Assembly: GCA_963833425.1 (NCBI GenBank)
Contig: CAWHXP010000008.1
Coordinates: 276,578-340,577, forward strand
DNA length: 64,000 nucleotides
DNA from: an uncultured Methanosarcinaceae archaeon
GTDB lineage: Archaea > Halobacteriota > Methanosarcinia > Methanosarcinales > Methanosarcinaceae
Direction: 5' to 3'
Made by a program: the position numbers and the translations under genes. Under the pieces are notes generated by a model that worked only from the letters and a program-made list of their open reading frames with translations, made no database searches and was not told where the DNA came from. Position 1 is the stretch's first letter; each line of letters starts with the position of its first letter. Positions 2,752-58,477 of the stretch are shown here, piece after piece.

Positions 2752-4049
2752 ATTTAACGGATATATTAGGAAATATCAGGCAGTCAACCTGTATCACAAG
2801 CACAGGCTTTAAGAAAAGCTCACAGCTTAATTTCTTTTACTGAATGCATGGATTTACCCTTTTGGCAGCTGACGAAATGGCTGTAATAGGCTGAGAATAG
2901 GTCATTAAAACTACATTATTACTTATCAAATATCTTTAATCCTTAAATATACAAGTTCCTTTGAGTCAATAGAAACAAAAAATTATATTACCTTTTAACG
3001 CAAATTAGTCAATTATAACCTGTCAATAGGCTTTACTTTCTTGCGTCATGTTTATATTCGCAGGATTAATTCTTATATGTGGTTGTCAAATTTGATGGGG
3101 ACGAGCAAATTTTTGAAAAAAAGGTTAACTTTTAAAATAACTTTCATGTAAAAAGGCGACAAAAATTGCCCTTACCAGGCTTAAAAAAGCTATTTAAACC
3201 TTATATTCAATTAACGAATTAAGTATACTTTTGAACACCATATCTGTTAAAGGATAAGATTTTGAGTTGTTCGAACTCGTTTCAGATCCTATATCGAATC
3301 GAACACGTAAAATTCAATATAATATCAACCACGGAATATAAGGAAACATTGAGCTTAATCTTCCTTTTTTCCGTGCTTTCAGCGATTCACTTTTTCATTA
3401 AAATTATAGTCAACGAATGGATTAAGTGCACTTTTGACTTTATTCTCGAAATAAAATCTGAATTATAAAATGAAAGATTCTCTTAGATGCTATATTTGAT
3501 GGAACACAAAATGAGAATAAGCCAGACCAAGGAAGAGATTATTTATAACTCCAATAATTGTTTTATCTTCATAGGAAACAATCTTTAGTGTTTTTTATTC
3601 GCATAAAAGAAGAATAAAAGCTGCACTTGTCGGTAATTTGTCGGGTACTTCACAATCCAAAACTACCTTTTCTTTTGTGGCTATAACGTTAGCGAATTGA
3701 TATCACATCCTCTTCCATTCTTTCTTGCTCAATCACCATCAAAATACAAGGTTCCATCAAAATTGGTATTTGAGACTTTCTAATATCTTCTCGTGTAGCA
3801 AAATTTAAATTAATTCCGCTAGTAATCAATTACATTTAATCAAAAACTCAAAAAATAACCAAAATTCTCTGAAAAAATTGTATTTTTTGGACAGCTACAT
3901 GATTAGTTATATTAAAACATTGTAGCATTTGCTAAAAAAATCCAAGGGAATGTAACAAGTCGAGATAACCGACTGAGTCAATTCAAAACACAGAAAATAA
4001 TAAAAAATTTCTGACAAAAAAGAAGAAAGGATAAAATAAATGCCCGAGT

Positions 4050-10151: not shown

Positions 10152-10629
10152 CAATAAATGACTTAATTTCAGTTCTACAGTAGGTTTCTAATTTTCCTTG
10201 GTGGACACCCATCCTACTCAAAAAAAGGCTTAATTAGTTCCACAATCTATCTTATGCTGCTTTATTAAATGAGCCTATGTGGCTAGGCTGATCTTAAATT
10301 TCAAAAAAGTTGATCTTGTAGCTGCAGGGGGTCCTTGCCTGCAGCTGAGAGAATGCCCAAGTAAAGGTTCCAGAAAACCTTTGAATTAAAACTAGATTTA
10401 ATTTTATATATATTTTTTGCATATATTCTAAATAATACTAACCTAAACTAATTAGTAATTGAAATTACGTATTCCATATCTCGTAATTGTAGCATAAGAT
10501 AACGTTCAATGTTAGTCAATAAATGACTTAATCTCAGGTCCTACAACAGACTGATAATTAATTCTAAGTGAATACCTAACTCACTTGAGAAAGTGCCATA
10601 AATCGCCCCACAAACGCTCTTCTCCTGCT
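10152..10629. repeat. Two degenerate ~110-bp direct repeats (10152-10261, 10517-10629)
   Basis: Both begin CAATAAATGACTTAAT.TCAG and end CCACAA.C..TCTT.T.CTGCT; a third homolog lies on the opposite strand at ~53190-53295. Confidence 0.7.
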
Positions 10630-10990
10630 CTAGATATTACCAGAATTCGTGTTTTATTATGTTTTTTTAAATTATTATATTTGAATTTTTATTATTTTAA
10701 AGTAATATAAGTATATAAAAAAAATCTCATGGGTACTTACCGTGCAAATCCGGCAAAATATGGGGATTCAGTTTTGTCGAAAAACGACTTGTTCTCAGGC
10801 TACTTGTGAGACTTTTATTGAGAGTTTCATGTAAAAATCATTGCTCTGCTTAGAAAATGTCTCTAACGACCTTATAATGGCTCATATTTGAATTGACGCC
10901 TATAAACCTCGCTTCTATGCAAAATAAAACGAACTAAATATTAAATACAAGACTAACTAATATTAATTGTAAAGTAAAAACGGTGAACTT

Positions 10991-11080
10991 ATGGCACGCC
11001 CTTGTAAATTAACTCCTAAAATACAACAACGAATCGATGAAAATATTGCGTTAGAACTCACATATTCTTGGGCTGCCTGA
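10991..11080 (+). pseudogene. Truncated terminase-small-subunit-like HTH gene, paralog of 52660-52981
   Basis: MARPCKLTPKIQQRIDENIALELTYSWAA* aligns with MARPSKLTPNITQLIGENVVLGMTYGLAA; the ~90 bp upstream of both genes is also homologous. Confidence 0.75.
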
Positions 11081-11141
11081 TGTCCCTGAAGCAGTATTCT
11101 TAGCAAACTTTTGCGGGCTTATGGATGTAAAAGATTAGAAG

Positions 11142-11362
11142 AAGGAGTTTTTAGACCCCTTACTTTTTAACTGTTTTTAGGACGTTGGATACTTATTTCA
11201 AATAATTCCTACTTACTTAGCTTGATTGCTTTAAACACCAATTACAGTATTAAATACTACAATTGATACTTTAAGCAATCAAGTTAAGTAAGTAGAAATT
11301 ATTTGAAATAAGTATCCAACGTCCTAAAAACAGTTAAAAAGTAAGGAGTCGAAAAACTCCTT
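11142..11362. repeat. 221-bp near-perfect palindrome (possibly a MITE nested in a hairpin)
   Basis: 110-bp arms centred on 11252 with 10 mismatches by hand count; inner 145-bp segment 11180-11324 (GGACGTTGGATAC...GTATCCAACGTCC) is flanked by TA on both sides. Confidence 0.95.
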
Positions 11363-12410
11363 TTTATTTTTGATTTTGGCAGTGTACCTGGTGGATATGG
11401 TAGTGAACCTTATGGAACAATAGAAACACCAAATTTGGAATCTAACGGCCATACGGCTAAATATTTAAGGAAACATAAACACCATACAACCAAACACCAT
11501 AAAACAGGAAAAAAACACTTAGTATTAAAGTAGATAGAAAATAGTTGGATTTCTAGATAGGGTATCCACATCGAAAGCGTTGGACATCCTGTATTACAAT
11601 TTTGAAAATGAAACAACATTTGGTATTAATATTTTAACAAAAAGATCAGTTAGACTGTAAATAAACTTGTTTGTTTAAAATCAAATCTGTATGTGTTTCT
11701 CTATACTTTTAGGTTTGTGAGTGTTAGGGTTAATAGTGTAGATCTACAAATTTTGAATATTTTATTCATATTACCTGATCTTGTAGACAGCTAAAGTAAT
11801 AAATTTAAGAAGAAGGTCAAAAGTAAACGGCATCTTTTTTGAGATTGGGGTATGTAGTACTAATGGGGAAATAACAGAATTAATCACATATGCCGAATAA
11901 GCTAAAGTAACTTATTATTATATGAGTAAATGTTGGTAAAATGATAAATTAGTATATTTTTCAGAAGTACTCTGGATAACCCGCATGATGAACAATAATA
12001 TTGATTCAAAATAGAGAATTTGAAATAGAGCTTAAAAATTAAACATATCTGGTATACTTTGCAATCAAATAGCTTTATGGTGTACGCCACGCAATGTATA
12101 CCATATGTTCACGCAATGGAATACACAATACTTTTCTTAATATGAACTGATATTTTCACGTATCTAAACAGTTTAGCCATGATTTAACTTTTAAGTAGTT
12201 CATTATAATAGATATAGAGTTACAGCTAAATGTTTATAATCCACTGGAGCTACTTTTGGGCAATTAATTGTTACTCGTTCATCAACTCCTACACCCACTC
12301 CAATGTCAAAGCAAAAAAGATCCAAACAACGTTAAGAAATAGTATTTACTTAGAACTATCAACAATATTTTTAGAGTCGAGTTAGAACTCTCAAGCGGTA
12401 ATATCTAGAT

Positions 12411-17788: not shown

Positions 17789-18976
17789 AAAATCCATTTA
17801 TGGAAGTGTTCCTTTTTCTGATTCTTATCCCTTTGTATCGGTCAAAATACATAATACAAAAAATGGTACAATTCCAAAATCCAGTGATTTCGCTATTCTT
17901 TTTTGACCGAATCTCAATTTCTCTCTAAATTAGTTTAATCAATTTGTTAATCCAATCTTCAAGAGTCACTATCCAACTAGTTTTTGCATCCTGATCTATA
18001 TCATATTTTTAAAAATAAATCCTGATTAGATGCTTCAGCTTACAAGTCTTGGTTTGGGTCTTGCCTACAAGCTGTTGATATTTTCTCATAGAATATTCAA
18101 ACAAATGGGATATATTTTTTAAGTATATTTATATACAAAAATTGAAATTTTGCTAAAATGAAAATGGGATATAAAAATCTGAAATAAGAATCATATGATA
18201 CATGATCTTTGGACAAGCTTTATCTTTATTAATATCGAACCTTAATAAAAGAACGAGCAACCTTTTCTTGACTCTTTTGATGCATTTTTTTTGTGCCAAA
18301 ACCTCTGCATTTTCTAAATTCCATCTGAAAAAAAGTATTTTGACCAAATCTTCGGAAAAATACATATTTTTTATTGAAATCACTGCAACTGCTACAAACC
18401 AAAAAGTTGTTGCTTTATATATTGAAAGGAGAATCTACCGAAATCAAATGAAAATCTGGGGGTAAAAATATTTTATCTCAAAAGATTGTTGCCTTTGCTA
18501 TCCTTCATACCCTACAGTTCTCTAATCTCATAAGGATATCTCAGAAATGTTGAATCTGGCTCCTTGACCATGGCAACAGCAGTGAATAACTAGTGTCTTA
18601 TGGTCATCACTTACTTACCAAAAAAGGAGACCTTATAATCTGCAGGAAAGAGATATCTGCAGCATTGTTGACTATCTGCCGTAGAACTCCGTGACAATTA
18701 TTCACTATCAGAAAATAAATACACAAAAGTATTTCATTTCTGGTTCTTTACTACGATGTATTTATGGATCACGATAAATTAGCTGAGCATGAAATATTAT
18801 ATATTATTATTCAATAACGTAACAACTTTAGTTTTGTTTAGAAATACTGTACCATTATTTTTTATTCTGAAATATTCTATCGTTATTTATTTATACCTTC
18901 CATTGCATATATAAAATTGGTCCATAGGGTCAGTCCCGATGTATGAAGAAGACGTACAAGAGTATAGAACTTTGAT

Positions 18977-19133
18977 AAGTAGTAACTTGACTAAAGTGGT
19001 TTAATTGAGTAATGACTTAAATGAGTAGTAACTTAACTAAGGTAACTTGACTGAGTAATGACTTAAATGAGTAGTAACTTGACTAAAGTAGCTTAACTGA
19101 GTAATGACTTAAATGAGTAGTAACTTACTAAGT
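18977..19133. repeat. Tandem repeat, 46-bp period, ~3.4 copies, made of 14-16-bp subunits
   Basis: Units start at 18977, 19023, 19069, 19115; example unit GAGTAGTAACTTAACT-AAGGTAACTTGACT-GAGTAATGACTTAAAT. Confidence 0.95.
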
Positions 19134-40100: not shown

Positions 40101-41000
40101 TTAGGTTTCTAAAAGGTTGTTCTGAGATTCTAGAAATTGTTGCTTTAGTGATTTAAAAAGTAACGGCAACTCCTCCTTTAGTTGTATGAGGAATTCTTCA
40201 TCTGATTTTACATTATAAAGCGCTCTCACTTTAGATAGCTGGTCAATTGATAAATTGAGAGTCCCCGTAAGATTAGCTCCTTCAAGGTTAGTTCCTTCAA
40301 GTTTAGCCCCGAACAAGTTGGTTCCTTGAAGATTGGCTTCTTTGAGGTTAGCTCCGGTAAGGCGCGATTCTACAAGATTTGCTCCGTAAAGATTAGCTTT
40401 TATAAAATCAGTTCCTTCAAGGTTAGTTTTTCTTAAATTAGCTCCTTGAAGTTTAGTTTCTCTAAAATGAGCTTTTTTAAGATTAGAACCCTTTAGATCA
40501 GCTCTTTTAAGATCAGCTAAGTGAAAATCAGCTTCTATCAAAGATGTATATCTAAAATTAGCTCCTCTAAGGTTAGCTTCTTCAAGATCAGCTCCATCAA
40601 GGGCAGCTCCTTCAAAGCTAGATCCTTCAAGATCTGCCATAAAAAGATTAGCTCTTTCAAGGGTAGCTCCTTCAAGTTTCGCTCCTTTAAGGTTCGCTCC
40701 TTGGAGATTAGCCCCTCTAAGGTTAGTCATATTCAGATTAGCTCCTCTAAGGTTAGCCATAAAAAGGTTCACACCTTGTAGATTAGCTCTTTTAAGATTA
40801 GCTTTTTCTAGTTTAGTCCCCACAAGGTTAGCCCCTTCAAGTATAGCCCCATCAAGATTAGCTCCTTCAAGGTTAGTTTCTCTAAGATTAGCCCCCCTAA
40901 GATCAATTTTTTCAAGGTTGGCCCTTTCAAGGTTAGTCCTTTCAAGGTTAATTCCTTTAAGATTAGCCCTCGAAAAGATAATTTCCCCAAGATCAATCAC
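40101..41000 (-). CDS. Pentapeptide repeat protein
   Basis: Long run of A(N/D)LxG-type pentapeptides ending NLSIDQLSKVRALY; GAGG SD before the GTG start. Confidence 0.93.
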   Translation of the reverse strand: MIDLGEIIFSRANLKGINLERTNLERANLEKIDLRGANLRETNLEGANLDGAILEGANLVGTKLEKANLKRANLQGVNLFMANLRGANLNMTNLRGANLQGANLKGAKLEGATLERANLFMADLEGSSFEGAALDGADLEEANLRGANFRYTSLIEADFHLADLKRADLKGSNLKKAHFRETKLQGANLRKTNLEGTDFIKANLYGANLVESRLTGANLKEANLQGTNLFGAKLEGTNLEGANLTGTLNLSIDQLSKVRALYNVKSDEEFLIQLKEELPLLFKSLKQQFLESQNNLLET

Positions 41001-48957: not shown

Positions 48958-50835
48958 TTTGTGAAAAATCGGAATTTCTTATGGATTATTAATTAGTAAC
49001 AATTTTATAGTGAAGGTTATGAAGCTGCTCATCAGACCAACTAGTTCCAAGATGCTGAAAATATCGTTGGAATGCGAAGGCAAAAAGAATTCAATGTAAA
49101 TATCCTTGTCTTAACACCGAAAACATTGTCTTTACCTAAGAATTTCTCAGAAATATACGTAGAGACGGTTATATGTTGGTAGCTGAACTTAAAAGAAAAG
49201 TAATAATATGGCACGTATCTTTCTTCAGAGGATTTCGATAAACCTTTTATTTTAAAGAGTCATTTACTACAACTTATAGGCATAGGAGGAAATTTAAGGG
49301 TTTATCAAAATTTTTTTCAGTACTTCACTAACTAGTACCCGATAATTTCAAAAGAAGACCTACTTGGTTTACAACAATGGCATGCTCTCTACGACTTCGA
49401 ATCTGATAAACAATTTACTAATTTAATTTTAATACAGGGTATTTCTTGGTTTTTCTGAGCATACATTATTCAGAGCCACAATATTAACATTCAGCAAAAA
49501 ATAGTGATTATGAAAAATAGATGGGATAAGGAACAATTGCAAAGCCAACTTCATTTCTTTGGTTTGGAAATAAAAAATGCTACATCCATAATAAACTATT
49601 CAAAATCAAATATTTTAATTTACTTATATGCTTCCTACATCCTGATTTTCCTCATTTTCGACATACTTCTCAAATTAAATCAGAAGTTGTTATATCATAA
49701 GTTACACCTTACGACACAGTTTACCAACTTATAATTGATTTTAATATATGATTATTTTGTTAATTTTTTTTTTGCTTTGATAATTTTTGTTATCTGCGCT
49801 CTCTTTAAAGATATATTTTGGTTTAGAATCAACTAGCATAAATACCTATATTGTTTACAATCATCGTTTGTCATGACTTGGAAATTAATTAAGGATCCTC
49901 TCTTAAAATAGTAAACATGTTACACCTTATGTGACCCTGCAAGATCAAGGGCATTTAATAAAGAGCTGTAATTTTCGGAATTTGAGATATAACGATTGAA
50001 TTTTTTGTTCTCCATAGTCTTCGGTTTTTATCGTATTTTGTTTTGAAGGGTGAGAACTCCAAGTCTCTAGAGCAAGTTCAGGTTCATTGCAGCTACAACT
50101 TTCTACATTGACCACCTATATTATTTATGCTCCATCCATTCAATTTTTTTGTTCAAACCACCTTTCTTTTTCAATAGCTTAGTTTTTCCTAATATAAGGC
50201 TTGATTGATTAAAGTTTCAATATTTCAGTCCTAATAGCTATCAGTTTGCTTAGTATCTAGCTCTTTCCATCCAACATGTTGGCACCATTTCAAATAGGTA
50301 AAATCTGCTAAATAAATAAGGGACGGGGCATTTATAGGCTCAAGGCAAGGTTTTTATACAATGGCAAAGTGGTATATGAAACTGACATCATAAAATCGAT
50401 CCCAGCGTCGCTAAATTAATTGTATTTTAAAAAAAAGTAGGGTGTATTAGTGAGCTTAGTTGTTTAAATGAATGTTTGGAATAATTTTGTAAATAATATT
50501 TAAAAAGATATAAAATAATTTGGCAAGTATAATTTTATACTGACTAAATTATTTCATATCTTGCATGCTATATTATAGTTTCAATCTAAATAACTGGAAA
50601 AATGGGAATTTGCGATTAAGAACTTAAAAAATGCCCCTGTATATATAAAATTTATTTTAATATAAAATGGAACTAGTGATGGTATTATTATAATTGGACA
50701 AATAAAAAAGAGACAACTATTTTGTCGACAGTTTGTTTTTATTAAAGTGAAATTTTAGACAGTTCCTGTAGACAATTACCGGAGGGAAGCTCACGCCAAT
50801 AATAATAGATTCGATACTAATTAATAAGTCAATAG

Positions 50836-51865
50836 ATGTCGCAACTCAACTAAAGTTCATCATTCCTGGCCTATAACGAGGAAACCTCCGTTGCGGAAAC
50901 TGTGAGAAGCGTGCTTGAGCAGACATGTCCTCCAGCAAGAGTGATCGTTGTAGATGACTGTTCCACAGATAGGACTGGAGAATTGGCAAGTCAGGCAGGT
51001 GCTGAGGTCATAAGGCCACCGAAGAACACAGGCTCCAAGGCAGGCGCTCAGAATTATGCCTTGCAATTAACTGATACCAAGTATACTATGGCAATAGATG
51101 CCGATACTACACTTGCTCCTGACGGCATAGAAAAACTCATTTCACCACTTGAGAATGAAGAGGTGGCTGCATCCTGTGGCTTCGTCATCCCAAGATATAT
51201 CAGCACCATTTGGGAACGAGGTCGATATATAGAATATCTTCTCGCTTTCACTTTCTACAAGCCGACTCAGGACTATTACGGCAAGCCAATAATGTCTTCA
51301 GGTTGCTTTTCGGCCTACAACACTGACAAGTTGAAGGAGATTGGTGGCTGGTCTGAACGTACCAGGGCGGAAGACATGTACTTGACCTGGAGCTTCTATG
51401 AGGTTGGCTACAAAGTTCGCTTTATTCCAGAAGCTGTTTGCTACCCGCTCGAGCCCCACAATTTCAACTTCATGAGCAAGCAGTTGAAGCGCTGGTCTCA
51501 CGGGTTTGTGCAGGAATGTACGGCTCCACTGGAGAAAGATCCTCAGATTACCGCTACTTAGCTCCATTGTAGGGATTTCCATGTGGGATGCAATCATAGC
51601 TTCAATTACATATCTGATATTACTTCCCATACTTGTGATATTTCTTAAGAATCCTTTTTTACTGCTTTTTTACATAATTGATCTTCCGACTATTCTCTTT
51701 CCGGTTATGGTAAAAGCGATTCAAAGGAAAGAGTTTTTTAGGGTTTTAGTTTCAATTGCTTGTTTTTTCATACTCAGAACTGTCAACGCCATATTTATGC
51801 TTGAAGCCATCTGGACGGACTATATACTTAATAAACCTCTCTTAGTTTATGAAAAAGGACACTAA
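50836..51865 (+). pseudogene. GT2 family membrane glycosyltransferase, frameshifted
   Basis: IIP/AYNEE broken near 50867; VVDDCSTD, IDADT, AED, QLKRW motifs; second frameshift near 51510 before the TM tail. Confidence 0.85.
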
Positions 51866-51888
51866 TTTTGTTAGAAAGGAGAATAATC

Positions 51889-52272
51889 GTGAATAGTGCA
51901 GGACTACCAGGAACAGGTATAGGGGGATTATTCTATATACTTTTAGCGTTGTGTATGCCATTTTTTGAGCTGTACCAGACCATCCTTGGTAGGAGCAGCC
52001 TTGAGAGATGGAAACTGGTCCTCAGGCAACTTGCTATCACCTTACTGATTCTGGCTGGAGCTGGAGGAACTTTCTTTCTGTCTTTTGAGCTTTTCGGTTT
52101 AAAGAATCCTGCTGCTTTGATGGTTGGCAATGCTGAACTGACGACTGAAGCCTTCTTCATTTTGCCTTTAGTAATTTCCTGGAGCTTATTGATTCTGGTT
52201 CTTGTTGGCATCAGAACCTGGGCACTTGTCGAGGTGGTTAGCAGCCGCAGGGGGAAGAAATTATATCCTTAG
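51889..52272 (+). CDS. Hypothetical membrane protein co-oriented with the GT2 gene
   Basis: GTG behind AGGAGA; AGLPGTGIGGLFYILLAL and three hydrophobic segments. Confidence 0.7.
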   Translation: MNSAGLPGTGIGGLFYILLALCMPFFELYQTILGRSSLERWKLVLRQLAITLLILAGAGGTFFLSFELFGLKNPAALMVGNAELTTEAFFILPLVISWSLLILVLVGIRTWALVEVVSSRRGKKLYP

Positions 52273-52464
52273 TTAAATATAATTTATTTCTGATTCCCAA
52301 CGAAAAACTTGTAGAGCCAATACGATATGATAAAAGGAAATAGATATTAGTTCTATTATAATGAAAATAGCTCTTGTTTCCGCCATAAAACAGCATCTTT
52401 GAAAACTTTCACATAACTTGAACATCCTTTTGTTCATTAGCCATACATTCTGTTTATTCTGAAA

Positions 52465-52480
52465 TTTTTGCAACAGAACC
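52465..52480 (-). mobile_element. Solo IS6-type terminal inverted repeat
   Basis: GGTTCTGTTGCAAAAA, one mismatch from the TIR ending at 7966; no adjacent transposase seen. Confidence 0.6.
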
Positions 52481-52659
52481 GAAATTTAAACATCATGTTT
52501 TTACCAGAAAATGCAGAAAAAGTAATTCTAGGTGGAACTTCTGGTAACTATAGATACAATTACGTCACCAAAAAGACAATAAGGAACCATATCATATTAA
52601 AAAATAGATCAAGTTAAGATGAAAAATCTAAGCATTTGATGACTCGTGACTTTCTATAG

Positions 52660-52981
52660 TATGAGCGAACTTCACGTCGGCCATAATCATTAGGGAACCT
52701 TCTCTCCAAAATCCACATGCAAACCTGGTAGTTTTCAGCTTCTGCTGCCGCGTTTAGTCACTGTAGACATTTCAAACCCCTTCTGCATTGCATTTCTCTA
52801 TATGTTTATAAAATTCAAAGTATTCTCCAGATTCTGACTTTTTGCCTTTCTGCACCCAATCATTAAAAGTCTGATATGTTAGTCCTGAGGATGCTGCTGC
52901 AAGGCCATAAGTCATCCCAAGCACCACATTCTCACCAATTAGCTGTGTTATGTTGGGGGTTAATTTTGAAGGTCTTGCCAT
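52660..52981 (-). pseudogene. Terminase-small-subunit-like HTH protein, frameshifted
   Basis: MARPSKLT...AAASSGLTYQTFNDWVQKG...; continues in another frame as LQ*LNAAAEAENYQVCMWILERRFPNDYGRR, a W.LERR.P..(W/Y)GR motif seen in phage TerS-like proteins. Confidence 0.7.
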
Positions 52982-53607
52982 GATAATCCCGTTTTTTACT
53001 TCTTATAAATAATATGAGTGACTCTTATACTTAATATTTACTTAGTTTACTCATGCATGAAGCCGCAATTAGGACTATCGACATCTACTAGGCTCATAGA
53101 TTTCTGTTCATAGAGATTCAGTCTCTTTACGTATGCTTTTATTAAAGTAGTCATGATACCTTCTAACATTTATTTAGACTTGGAGTCAAAAAGGCGATTG
53201 TGCAGCGATTTAAGCCATGTTCTTGGGCTAGATATGGTATATTCCATCAGAACAGTCAAAAAACTCAATGTAGGACAGGAGATTAAGCCTATTGAGGTAA
53301 CATGGAAAAAAAGCTTAACGAGATAATTTTAGCGGATAAAATGAAGTAGAAGAAATCTCATTTTGGAATTCGAGTATATTAATCGGCCAATATTACGTCT
53401 TGGTTTTTATATAAGCCAGTAAAAAGTTGCTACTTCTATTGTTTTAGAGGTATGAACCAGTATAGTAGTCACAATATCATATATTCACTTTCGGAACGTT
53501 AGGTAAGTTCTTGAAATCGTTACAGTTATTTTAATTTTACTATTAAAATATAAATATATATCTATATATACACTATTTTTTATAGATATAATTCAAAGTC
53601 GAAACAA

Positions 53608-53878
53608 AATTACACAAATTTCGGATTTCATAGACGAAAAATTACACCTTATTTAAAGAGAAATGAGTATGTAGAAACATTAAAAAATAAAAATTATACA
53701 AATTACACATTGTAGGAATAACCTATAGCTTCTTTATAGAGACTAGAATTAAGATTTCTCTTTATAGGTATATAGTCCTAATCTGTGTAATTTGTATAAT
53801 TTTATAGTTAAAGTAGTCCATTAGATATCAAAAAATGATATTCTAGTTGTGTAATTTCTGTGTAATTTCTGTGTAATT
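53608..53878. repeat. Convergent iteron-like array (AATTACAC/AATTATAC), candidate element origin
   Basis: Forward copies at 53608, 53640, 53692, 53701; reverse copies at 53784, 53793, 53848, 53859, 53870; perfect 20-bp inverted repeat 53690-53709 / 53784-53803. Confidence 0.85.
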
Positions 53879-54259
53879 CTTTTAATTTAAAGGGATTATA
53901 AACAGTTTGAGTTATCATCACGATCTAATTATTCCTTGACAGAATATTGAGCTAATCTCAAGATCAAAGATGTTTGTAATCTACCTAGTTAACTACATTT
54001 CAGCTTCTCCCTTTGTTTTTGTCCAAAATCTGATCGTTTCTATGATTGGACTTATTGTTTCGTCTTGTGGAAGATATTGTCTTCATTAATACTTTCATAG
54101 TTAAGACCAGTAAGTTCTTCTGCAATTGATCGTTTCATCCTAACTCCTGCGAAAGTCTTTTTTTCTCTAGTAATTCTGTTAGTACCAGCTCTCTGATAAG
54201 ATTCTTATTTTGTATCTGATGCACTCTTTTTAGACGAAGTTTAGTCAGATATACTAGGA

Positions 54260-54688
54260 ATGCCAAAAAAAATTAGTACGTCCATAAACACTAATATTTA
54301 TGGCAAACATTGGTATTTTGAAATTCCAGCTGATGACTTAGACCGTGCGAAGCGCTTCTACCACTCCCTGCTCGGGTGGAAGATTGAACCGACCAAAGCT
54401 CCTGTCCCTGATACATTGATGCGGTATCAGGATATCGTAACAGGAGATTCAAATGTAGGTACTCCTATGGGTGGTACTCTCAGCATGGGTGGGATGCATA
54501 AGCGGAGGATGAACGAGTCAATCGTCAACTATGTGATGGTAGACGATATCGACGAAAAGATTACGACGGTAGAGAAACTGGGAGGAAAGATCGCCGTACA
54601 AAAACGGGAATTAGAGTTCTTGGGGCAGTTTGTGATCATCCAAGACACCGAAGGAAACGTCATAGCTCTCTTCAAGCCAAAAATGTAG
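54260..54688 (+). CDS. VOC/glyoxalase family protein (native start at 54300 appears frameshifted)
   Basis: YFEIPADDLDRAKRFY..LLGW, NYVMVDDID, GGKI, QDTEGNVIAL; ATG GCA AAC ATT at 54300 is out of frame with the body of the gene. Confidence 0.8.
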   Translation: MPKKISTSINTNIYGKHWYFEIPADDLDRAKRFYHSLLGWKIEPTKAPVPDTLMRYQDIVTGDSNVGTPMGGTLSMGGMHKRRMNESIVNYVMVDDIDEKITTVEKLGGKIAVQKRELEFLGQFVIIQDTEGNVIALFKPKM

Positions 54689-54769
54689 ATGATACATTCC
54701 AAGACTTTACCGAAGAATAGTGAATTATCGCAGATAAAGACAGAGCGGTGGTTCGTTATTATATGCAAA

Positions 54770-55006
54770 AAAGCTTCATATTCTAACATATCCATATTCC
54801 GCATAAAGAATTCGATGCTTATCTCTTGAAGCTGATTCTGTCTCGGTAACCAGATACACTTGCTCACATCTTTTGTAATATGCCACTACCACACGCTTGC
54901 GGCACCGTCTATAACATCATAAACATAATCCCCGTTTCATAGCCCCACTTGTGCTGTATTTTCTTTGCGAGAGCACATATTCTAATGACTTTTCTGAGAG
55001 GTCCAT
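54770..55006 (-). pseudogene. 3'-truncated hypothetical protein, paralog of 8363-8680
   Basis: MDLSEK / ICALAKKIQHKW / SVW*WHITKDVSKCIWLPRQNQLQEISIEFFMRNMDMLEYEAFLH, with frameshift and stop. Confidence 0.7.
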
Positions 55007-55182
55007 GTCAATCATTCTCGAAATGAATTATTGAGTTATAGGTTAAAAGGAAACTCCGAGTTATGTGAAAGTATTCAAAGCGGAATAGTTCAGGATAAAG
55101 CACAACATTTAAGAATTTCTTTACAATTAACCTCATTCATGATGATTTTAAATTGATCTTACAAGAAAGAGGCATATACTGC

Positions 55183-55886
55183 ATGTGTGGAGCGTATGGA
55201 TTTTCAATAAAAAACATAAAAGATGTGTATGATAGGTTTTTTATAGAAAATACTTTAGAGAATTTTAAACCAAGATGGAACATCAGCCCAGGACAATTAA
55301 ATCCTTTATCGTCAATCACGAGAAAAAGGAAATTGATTTGATTTTTTGGGGACTACTCCCTAATTTTGCCGAAGATGAGCATTATAAATACAAAGCGATA
55401 AATGCTAAAGCTGAAACATTTGATAAATTGCCTACATTCCGCCAACCGTTTCTTCATAAACGTTGTTTTATCCCAGCGATAGGGTTTTACGAACCAGATC
55501 AGATTCATTTTTTAAAAAATCCCTTCCAGTGGCACTATTTCCAGATGAAAGACCATTCAATTTTTGCCTTTGCTGGGCTGTATGACGTTTGGAAAGATAA
55601 AAAGAACATGAAAGAAATCCATAACTACACGATCATTACTACAATACCTAATACGACTGTTGGCAAATATCATGATAGAATGCCTGTTATTTTAGAAAAA
55701 GAGGATGAAGACGTATGGTTGAATCCTGATATTGTTGAAGCGGATCAGCTTTGCCCCTTATTGAAGCCCTTGCCTGACGAAAAAATTGAAGAATGGGAAG
55801 TTGGAGATGAAGCAAGAAATCCAAGAAACGATTATCCAGAAGTTATTGAGCCATTTAAAACCAACAGGCAAAGAAGCTCATTCTAG
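55183..55886 (+). pseudogene. SOS response-associated peptidase (SRAP/YedK/HMCES), frameshifted near 55303
   Basis: N-terminal MCG, RWNISPGQ, then WGLLP, INAKAET, RCFIPAIGFYE, FAGLYD, YHDRMPVIL in another frame. Confidence 0.9.
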
Positions 55887-56048
55887 TAATTTTTTATTAC
55901 TGTAGAATCTACGAAGGATAGAGATTTATGGTTCCGACAGTAGCTGGAAAAATACTCTCCTCGTTGACTTGACAGAACCAAAAAATAAATCCTGAATACT
56001 TTCACCTAACTCCCTTTAACCTTATGATCTTTTATAATCTGATATTTC

Positions 56049-57157
56049 ATGATGCTTGCTCTCAATCCTAAAGCAAACAATACCGACAGGTGGATAGTTC
56101 TTCATGTAGATATGGACAGTTTTTTTGCGTCCGTGGAGGTCAGGGAAATGCCAGGAATAAAAGGACTGCCTGTTGTGGTGGGTTCTGACCCTAAAGGGGG
56201 GTCAGGCAGAGGAGTTGTAAGCACCTGTTCTTACGAGGCACGAAAATACGGAATTCATTCGGCAATGCCAATTTCACAGGCATATAAACTCTGTCCTGAG
56301 GCTGTCTTTTTGCCTGTCAACATGAAAGCTTTATGCACAGGTTTCGGCAAACGTAATGGAGATCATGAAAGGGTTTGCTGAGAAGTTTCAGCAGGCGAGT
56401 GTTGATGAAGCCTATCTAGTGCCAGGACCTGAGATAAAGAGTTTTGAAGAGGCTGCAATTTGTGCTCTCAAGATCAAAGATGAAGTTCAACGTCAGGAAA
56501 GAATTACATGTTCAGTTGGAGTCGGACCGAATAAGCTTATTGAAAAGATCGCTTCAGGTTTTCAGAAACCGGATGGTCTTACAGTTGTTCGACCTGAAGA
56601 TGTCAGATACTTTTTTTTCGCTAAACGTCTCAAAAATCCCTGGAATAGGTGAAAAAACAACAGAATCCCTAAAATTGATGGGGATAACCAAAGCTGAGTA
56701 GCTAGCAAGCTGTGATATCCATAGGCTTTCTGAAAGGTTCGGGAAAATGGGGCTCTGGATGAAGCAGGTGGCGTATGGTCTAGATTTCAGTGAAGTAAAG
56801 GAATGGGAGGAAGCGGTAAAGTCAATAAGCAGGAGTGGGACATTTGAGGAGGATACAAACGATCCTGTAAAAATTGCTGGCTTTCTGGAAATGCTTGCTG
56901 AGAGTGTTCATAGAGCTCTCCTAAGAGATAGTTTTCTTTTCAAAAAAGTAAATCTTAAAGTTCGCTATTAAGACTTTTCCACATATACACGCTCAAAGAC
57001 TATCCCAGTCTGGACTTCGGATATCTTCGTGATTAAAAGGACAGCGATTCAGCTCCTTTCGGAGTTTATTGGAAGTCAAAAGTTTAGACTTGTTGGTGTG
57101 GGGGTTACAAAACTTAGGGAAAGAGACGAGAGGGAAACCCTGATTACAGATTTCTAA
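56049..57157 (+). pseudogene. dinB: DNA polymerase IV (Y family), several frameshifts and stops
   Basis: [57 protein letters not shown]-box-like ETLITDF; TAG at 56699, TAA at 56969. Confidence 0.93.
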
Positions 57158-57797
57158 AAATCCAGTTTTCGAATGGAAACCCCGGGGTTATATAAATATA
57201 AATATCTTTTATAAGTTTAGTTAATTCTTCCTATATTGTTATGCACGTTACTACCTATCCACTACAGCTCACACGACAACTTTAGACTAACTTTTTATCC
57301 CTATCGAAGGCTTACAAACAAATTTTTGCGCACTATACCCTTGCGCATTTTTTCAGGTAAACCCTTAGATGGGTTTTTAACTTAGTCCATACTTGTAGCA
57401 TGGCTATGTTCCGCTATAGAAAAACCAGCAAAACTAAGTTGGTCCAAAGTTGGTTCAGGTTCCGATATATTATAGGAATCATTATGATTCTTGCCTTTGA
57501 GTGCTATTTCCTGGTAATGAGACTGATTAACTTTCTAATTGTGAAGCTTTACACTGATTTTGCAACAAAGCCAGATTTTTTGCACGACAACCAGTTTAAG
57601 GAAAGAATTTCCAAAGTACTTAGAAAAACATAACCTTGGATATCGATATCATACAGCTATCTGGGCTTCAATTAATCTACTATTGGATAAACACAGTGAA
57701 AAATACTTTTTTATTCAACTTAATAAATGGGTTGTGGTGCAAAAATCTCTTTATGAATCTCCAAAACACAGGTGATATGCTCGTTTTTTATATTTGA

Positions 57798-58020
57798 TCA
57801 ATGACTCACAGAAACGATTAATTTATGGTAAATTTGAAATGTCTTATGATAAGGTTCATCACCCACATACCTTTTCCATTCCTCTGGTGTGAGATTCCGG
57901 GTTAAATGATTGCTGATTTCGTTTATAAGATCTTCGGTATTAATTATCCACAGCTTTGCGGTTTTGTCATTACTCGCCGTAGCGAAGTATTTCCCATCCC
58001 CGTAGCAAGATGCTGTATTC
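57798..58020 (-). pseudogene. C-terminal fragment of a WD40-repeat protein
   Basis: DGKYFATASNDKTAKLW followed by DLINE...LTRNLTPEEWKRYVGDEPY. Confidence 0.75.
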
Positions 58021-58477
58021 AACTGAAATAAATTGATACTTTTTAAACCAATTTTTGTATTTTTGGTTCAGAAAGCGCCATATTACTCTAGTTTAGGATA
58101 AAAATACAAACCAAAAAACTACAATAGCTGAATTTAGATATTATATGCATCTGACGGATTTATGATTTAATTTATTAAGTCATTTGGAGCAGAATCCCAT
58201 ATTTCGCAAATGAAACAAAATGTATCTATTTTCGTAATATGAAACGCTTAAAAACAGATTTATACTTCAATAATAATAATAGTAGGCAAATAGGAACCCA
58301 ATTTATAAGCATGCATAGCATCCGTAGAAAGTCGGCAAAATTACTGCAAAAGCTAAATATCCACACACTTTTCTCAGAAGCCGTATAAAAAAAGAATCTG
58401 AAAAATCAGTAAAAGACTAGAGAATCGTCAGAAAAGACAAAAGCCAGGTAAAAAGTGTAAAAACAGAGTGCAAAATT

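Follow-up and report, generated by a model that had tools for sequence, protein, structure and literature searches.

The window, i.e., the whole stretch of 64,000 nucleotides analysed here (G000:C8:276,578-340,577, from the 4.07-Mb, 80% complete genome G000), contains the dead right half of an integrative element, which retains the tail of a replication gene (rep), an origin, a broken small terminase gene (terS), cargo, and an attachment site. The integrase half, the regulators, and most of rep have been lost from this copy. The original prediction had placed a rep tail, iterons, a 110-bp motif, and a terS-like gene on the minus strand, and all of these were recovered where it had put them, while the left limit of the element lies ~2.8 kb farther than proposed, at 49,821. 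As it had also reported, no capsid, large terminase, or integrase was recognized in a marker-set homology search of 49,400-58,100, and its caveat that the missing genes could have been deleted is right for the window copy.

The rep remnant (54058..54195, minus strand) is the 3' end of a DUF927/Cch-type initiator-helicase gene, as indicated by Pfam and by a protein match to a paralog at the end of contig C7, a 552-aa DUF927 plus Cch-HTH protein (Pfam) which also matches a PHROG primase/helicase family (E 2e-47). What is left are the last ~50 codons, about 57-61% identical to this paralog (57% over 51 aa, E 7e-13), and the peptide quoted earlier from a broken coding-like tail ahead of the iterons, matching residues 495-545 of the C7 protein, belongs to this remnant. 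At the DNA level, similarity to the C7 locus (75%) covers 53,578-54,191 and stops at 54,191. The replication origin (53608..53878, unstranded, 24% G+C) was recognized by repeat count and by comparison with the C7 element, which has the same array, and consists of nine AATTAYAC iterons in opposed sets of four and five around a central core. The exact 9-mer AATTACACA is present six times in 53,608-53,878 and seven times in the whole window, against 0.91 expected, and none of 100 shuffles reached seven; including near-matches there are nine copies, four on the plus strand followed by five on the minus strand. SaPI origins are described in the available text of PMC9371898 as 6-12 iterons straight after rep, with opposed sets about an AT-rich centre, and the array fits this description of a SaPI-type origin, as which we predict it to act.

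The terS gene itself (52655..52981, minus strand; paralog alignment and PHROG) is a pseudogene, with a 1-nt frameshift near 52,770, which is followed within a few codons by a premature stop, and a 95-nt deletion at 52,676. It is preceded by a conserved leader of ~80 nt (52982..53063, minus strand), a probable promoter/ribosome site matching 24 of the 25 other copies that keep their 5' end, and, further upstream, by the 110-bp motif (53190..53306, minus strand), a candidate packaging or regulatory site which aligns with the upstream region of other terS copies (17 aligned) and which a motif search did not find in the virus G059, described below, or in TerL-bearing loci. A second conserved non-coding segment (53336..53560, minus strand) has 12 other matches in the genome, four of them beside element genes. 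On the 3' side of terS, sequence comparison revealed another conserved non-coding stretch (52480..52660, minus strand), next to a short multi-copy repeat (52427..52481, unstranded, >20 matches in the genome), which is presumably an IS end.

A 69-aa piece of the window terS matches PHROG 4102, terminase small subunit, with E 6e-9, and its intact paralogs do so with 2e-15 to 3e-25. Among the IMG/VR homologs, 28 of the 46 downstream ORFs tested are a Pfam terminase; these ORFs were chosen from 71 after dropping near-duplicates, and 9 of the 80 loci had no long downstream ORF. Besides, a family member in G023 overlaps a 459-aa TerL. The IMG/VR homologs are not close, the best being 39-43% identical, and a scan with the single protein was blank; TerS was not recognized by Pfam, and searching PDB sequences with its profile gave no meaningful match. 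The structural model (pLDDT 75) begins with three short helices at the N-terminus, followed by a long helix and a loose tail. In structure it most resembles small proteins of tailed phages, among which those with the name TerS match at E 0.01 or weaker. By its relatives the small gene is a true TerS homolog, and the relationship originally suggested for the HTH protein is borne out by the viral relatives that precede a terminase. The intact paralogs are under purifying selection, with a median dN/dS of 0.19 in 27 of the 28 pairs of eight intact copies and dS mostly above 1; three of the 11 candidates had been dropped as broken, and the sole pair with a ratio above 1 is nearly identical.

The relic and other mobile DNA together form an inserted island (49498..57987, unstranded) that is missing in a relative, G045, in which 49,497 is joined to 57,988 across 95 nt, while in G021 and G049 the joint is between 49,046 and 58,120 across about 1.2 kb. 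The insertion target was a decayed IS200/IS605 tnpA, whose 3' half (49560..49823, minus strand; left limit approximate) maps on a Y1_Tnp relic at C11:140.5-140.9 kb, and the same HUH region is interrupted by the C18 element. The right attachment site (49821..49857, minus strand) comprises a GTT-N7-AAC core (49,821-49,833) and an inner arm, and repeats, in inverted orientation, the ends that lie upstream of the C18, C21, C1, and C6 integrases. The conserved terminal region of the element (49831..50465, minus strand) starts sharply at 49,831 and has 73-76% identical copies elsewhere. In two sister copies (C8:207 kb and C15:71 kb), terS is followed by part of this region at a distance of ~290 nt; in the window, cargo is found in between (50902..52272, plus strand; ORFs and Pfam), consisting of a split GT2 glycosyltransferase and a hydrophobic 134-aa ORF.

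At the position of the missing part of rep, a VOC/glyoxalase gene (54260..54688, plus strand; Pfam) is followed by a broken hypothetical gene (54720..54992, minus strand; genome comparison), of which the genome contains three other copies. Both are only putative members of the element, since they lie outside the part common to the C7 paralog; the VOC gene that had been predicted on the opposite strand is thus real, but only a putative cargo gene. They are adjoined by a neighbouring SRAP and Y-family polymerase cassette (54958..57262, plus strand; Pfam), which shares 95-97% identity with its copies on C13 and C2. This cassette has three near-identical copies in the genome and in two relatives is found within 2 kb of a terS copy.

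Two relatives are bounded at both ends, i.e., the 17-kb C18 element, whose two ends share a 7-bp core and which interrupts an IS200 tnpA, and the 13-kb C21 element, with matching 7-bp cores and a 16-bp direct repeat. Matching end cores were not found for the C10, C5, C20, and C9 types. The attachment cores and their flanks vary from site to site, and the integration target appears loose, since at many other ends the core differs and the flanks are not IS sequences. The window core (49,824-49,830) is identical to the left-end core at G000:C8:399,358-399,364, 73 kb away and in the opposite orientation, and the flanks of the two are complementary tnpA halves. A simple inversion between the window core and C8:399,365 was rejected, with argB and rfcL not adjacent in five relatives and the site in G045 simply empty. 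Two other candidates for the ends were also discarded, namely a tRNA-His call in the window, far from the element, and a 35-bp inverted repeat (52,397/55,046) without a match to the ends.

The terS gene forms 37 tblastn clusters in genome G000, 34 of them at E below 1e-4 (two of the 34 being doubtful short matches). These 34 relics have an integrase upstream in eight cases and a replicase in 14. Neither TerL nor structural homologs were found within 20 kb of any of them by marker/family homology search, nor TerL at any of 38 close GTDB loci, so that the check for a virion module among relatives, called for in the original prediction, found none. In intact copies, a tyrosine integrase is followed by divergent winged-helix and AbrB-type regulators (weak LexA-type HTH and MazE/AbrB matches, with no match to AlpA/Stl), a replicase, the origin, terS, cargo, and the attachment site. 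The replicases are interchangeable (Prim-Pol plus helicase, family A polymerase (PolA), NrS-1-like, DUF927, and D5-like), while terS is constant.

The terS family was matched in 20 of the 59 genomes of the genus, six with 16-64 matches and 14 with 1-3, and elements of this kind are carried by Methanosarcina genomes including the complete G058, G057, and G012. Close homologs of the element genes were located in Methanosarcina/Methanosarcinaceae records at 37 of 38 loci, the other being an identical-looking contig in a bacterial bin. At the 16 loci from the 14 low-copy genomes, TerL was found once and an integrase and/or replicase upstream nine times, and among other DUF927 loci the TerS family is downstream in 2 of 21. 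Terminase_6N (intact TerL) and an HK97-type portal were absent from all five expanded genomes searched, which are 76-92% complete. On the other hand, short TerL C-terminal relics are present in all six expanded genomes, pointing to the former presence of terL-bearing DNA. Such a relic of ~290 bp recurs in the terS-expanded genomes, mostly from the same codon (G000:C12:21,126-21,414; L216-L225). A crude search revealed no usable CRISPR array in genome G000. In assembled contigs of four weakly matching peat/permafrost runs (5-10% shared words), the joints listed for the C18 element were empty-target joints only, with no end-to-start joint among them.

Using the G023 TerL as query, we found two genomes with direct terminal repeats, G059 and G060. 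G059 is a complete 77.6-kb tailed virus with tape measure, major tail, and neck genes, weak portal matches, and TerL together with the same TerS family. Its tape-measure-type protein is 4,621 aa long, and it further encodes thymidylate synthase and small secreted peptides rich in Gly/His that resemble those of the host (L140, L311-L314). Its putative capsid gene, assigned by position and size, has no family match in Pfam, PHROGs, or PDB sequences, and was found in none of the 59 genomes of the genus. G059 is probably a virus of Methanosarcina, considering that its TerL is about 70% identical to that of Methanosarcina elements, that its small secreted genes are of the host type, and that it shares a 130-bp non-coding match with genome G000. 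The TerS of the window clade is 34-37% identical to that of G059. One terS-only element (L301) combines the standard layout with a 137-aa gene (2798-3211) that matches the N-terminal part of the putative head protease/scaffold of G059 with 55% identity, a piece present in 1 of the 59 genomes, and this stand-alone piece is possibly a capsid-interference gene.

G060 (L139/L315) is a complete 21.4-kb circle with a primase, helicases, a gene in the terS position, terL, and an integrase piece, without a structural match. A metagenome scan gave 47 TerL loci, in which the same TerS family was directly upstream in 28 and another TerS in 11; a replicase was upstream in 10 of the 28, and beyond these 28 another contig (L342) carries head genes resembling those of G059. 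Neither a portal nor a capsid was detected among the 48 of 61 downstream ORFs scanned, mostly from short contigs, and two small downstream ORFs match part of a 'tail protein' profile. Some of these contigs may be viruses, as they are mostly short and the portal of G059 lies ~11 kb from terL. Integrative elements with both terS and terL complete and no capsid or portal seen (L047/L048 in G030:C15, L052 in G023:C342, L139/L315 in G060, and L320-L363) comprise at least three TerS families, some being followed by helicase/methylase defence blocks. Besides, a provirus-like relic (L051, G052:C5) has a terS of another family, terL, a 418-aa unrecognized gene, and a minor head protein. In IMG/VR (L085-L131), a clade of 13 viral-contig TerS homologs is followed by exonuclease or short ORFs rather than TerL, and may represent other satellites or rearranged phages. 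The G059 virus with the TerS family and TerL, the capsid-less terS+terL sister elements, and the head-protease piece of L301 are new here.

A tree of 42 hand-picked TerS rows, with 20 of 70 viral rows included and some low-copy rows left out, resolved three separate groups, namely the window clade and the other terS-only genes, each with 100/99, and the TerL-paired genes including G059, with 95/82. The other terS-only genes and the TerL-paired genes are sisters (96/91), with the window clade outside. The three Methanosarcina groups were separated together from the other viral TerS at 89/74, which is not strong support. A virus of the G059 kind is therefore a plausible helper for the window clade, although the cognate helper was not found.

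Based on these findings, we interpret the family as PICI-like satellites of head-tailed archaeal viruses, to which we assign a probability of about 0.7, and the window copy as a real but dead member of this probable satellite family. The claim of a PICI-like archaeal satellite thus suits the family, but not the copy for which it was made, in which terS is a pseudogene and the integrase, regulators, and most of rep are deleted. The interpretation follows from the TerS identity, the purifying selection, a layout without virion genes, the SaPI-like origin, and the matching ends, and also from the helper-kind virus G059, the head-protease piece of L301, and the capsid-less circle G060. Against it count the 34-37% identity to the G059 TerS and the separate branch in the tree, the lack of intact TerL and portal in five expanded genomes, the G059 capsid gene found in 0 of 59 genomes and the head-gene piece in 1 of 59, the terS at only 2 of 21 DUF927 loci, the TerL relics, and the failure to find an excised circle for the window clade. 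We also lean, somewhat less firmly, towards a graded series of terminase pirates of Methanosarcina tailed viruses, running from full viruses over capsid-less terS+terL elements to terS-only elements, the latter having reached dozens of copies per genome in one lineage. This would be the first PICI-like satellite system known for archaeal head-tailed viruses, and one of the main ways in which genes move among these methanogens.

SaPIs respond to a helper by derepression, excision, autonomous replication, and TerS-directed packaging. By analogy, the intact relatives, integrative elements of 7-17 kb, would be satellites of head-tailed Methanosarcina viruses in which infection by a helper would relieve repression, the element would be excised as a circle by its integrase, and the iterons would serve as the loading site of the Cch-type helicase to start autonomous replication. 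The element TerS might then bind a site on the element and pair in trans with TerL, directing element DNA into helper proheads, with TerL supplied by a G059-like virus or, in a less simple scheme, by the capsid-less terS+terL sister elements. The loose GTT-N7-AAC target, which includes multi-copy IS200 relics, would account for the dozens of insertions per genome, most of them decayed.

An explanation of the same layout without packaging is that these are self-replicating integrative islands which spread by other routes and use TerS as a weapon, poisoning the terminase of incoming viruses and thereby protecting the host. This would suit the position of terS next to the cargo zone, where relatives hold defence-like blocks, its absence from most related int-DUF927 elements (present in 2 of 21), and the missing cognate helper. 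We nevertheless consider it unlikely, since full-length TerS, including the DNA-binding part, is kept across unrelated replicase types, the sister elements have a complete terS-terL pair in the same position, which points to packaging, and conjugation genes did not stand out among the element ORFs scanned. A dependence in three tiers, with terS-only elements borrowing TerL from capsid-less terS+terL elements and the latter borrowing empty virus proheads, is rather unlikely; intact terL was found in none of the five expanded genomes tested, and most terS+terL contigs are short, so that, with the G059 portal ~11 kb from terL, some may be viruses. It is nonetheless in line with the complete G060 circle of the terS+terL type and with the metagenome TerL loci, of which 28 of 47 have the same TerS family (10 of the 28 with a replicase) and which showed no portal or capsid in 48 of 61 ORFs.

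That the elements are instead the left arms of proviruses in decay, or degenerate terS-terL elements, with terS as a deletion remnant, is very unlikely and has been largely refuted by C18 and C21, which are bounded at both ends and have no space for a virion module. Most copies are indeed broken, the window copy included, the expanded genomes repeatedly contain relics of the TerL C-terminus (among them L217, 190 nt after a terS piece), and G052 has a provirus-like locus with a related TerL. However, the L217 junction is absent in the ortholog L219, dN/dS is about 0.19 with dS saturating, the two deep terS-only clades are strongly supported, and recent near-identical terS-only elements exist at different sites (C10 and C5 copies, dS 0.01).

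Considering the satellite interpretation, PICIs offer the closest frame of comparison within the available text of PMC10085698, which defines them by five core components. The family clearly has three of the five, i.e., an integrase (8 of the 34 relics, though missing in the window copy), a primase-replicase with a downstream origin, and a small terminase. As in the PICIs and SaPIs described there, an integrase, regulator, primase-replicase, and terS follow in this order within about 7-17 kb, with cargo after terS, an opposed-iteron origin right after rep, and no tail or lysis genes seen. The differences, within the same text, are the archaeal host, the winged-helix/AbrB regulators instead of AlpA/Stl/MerR, the family A polymerase among the replicases, the loose multi-site integration, and dozens of relics per genome instead of up to five. 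A capsid-remodelling gene occurs at most once in the family, and its satellite behaviour is a prediction from gene content; PMC10085698, in the part available, treats the capsid-morphogenesis gene as optional, SaPIs being without the enterobacterial type. We use PICI-like, and not PICI, because the host is not bacterial (37 of 38 loci in Methanosarcina/Methanosarcinaceae).

The accessible part of PMC9371898 describes SaPI Rep2 and SCCmec Cch helicases with DUF927, the Cch helix-turn-helix domain, and opposed iterons directly downstream, as in our elements, whereas the window copy keeps only the last ~50 codons. The cf-PICIs (PMC10085698, available text) share a full terminase with the terS+terL sister elements but encode capsid, portal, and head-tail parts, none of which was found in terS-only or terS+terL elements; a Caudoviricetes head/tail gene module was not found in the family either, the bounded C18 and C21 elements being without it. 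Marine VEIMEs/tycheposons, as far as covered by the available text of PMC9618062, also have an integrase, a primase/helicase or polymerase, and sometimes terS, but were recovered from virus particles, whereas the packaging of our elements is a prediction. Among archaeal elements, the accessible part of 10.1101/2025.02.15.638363 names as satellites only pSSVx, pSSVi, and the haloarchaeal SRCEs, all of which use spindle-shaped viruses. These likewise join an archaeal replicon to an incomplete morphogenesis module; they are, according to this text, plasmid-derived and linked to spindle-shaped viruses (ATPase or MCP), whereas the elements of the present family are integrative, with a terminase gene of Caudoviricetes, and no match to plasmid Rep or to spindle-virus ATPase/MCP was found among the element ORFs scanned.

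If this interpretation is right, a terminase-hijacking family would bring the SaPI strategy into the Archaea, such hitch-hiking in virus capsids having until now been reported mainly from bacteria. The window copy is dead and adds little on its own; Methanosarcina genomes with such elements and a candidate kind of helper are at hand, which makes the satellite question testable. Defence and metabolic genes travel as cargo with these elements in an important methane producer, and the elements could be turned into a tool for transducing methanogens. A literature search on titles and the beginnings of abstracts found no description of them, although a 2023 compendium of methanogen viruses may mention them. 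The available text of PMC13573593, PMC9796341, PMC9618062, and PMC4936722 contains no description either.

The window also holds other repeated DNA. A 46-nt tandem repeat at 18,969-19,127, at one point a candidate part of the element, and a long array with a 15-nt period at 40,240-40,950 are both unrelated to it. Besides, another copy of the element (copy A, 10,379-11,077) has a truncated terS with a duplicated upstream motif, and is followed by a 113-bp inverted repeat with 90% identity and a 1-nt gap (11,139-11,365).
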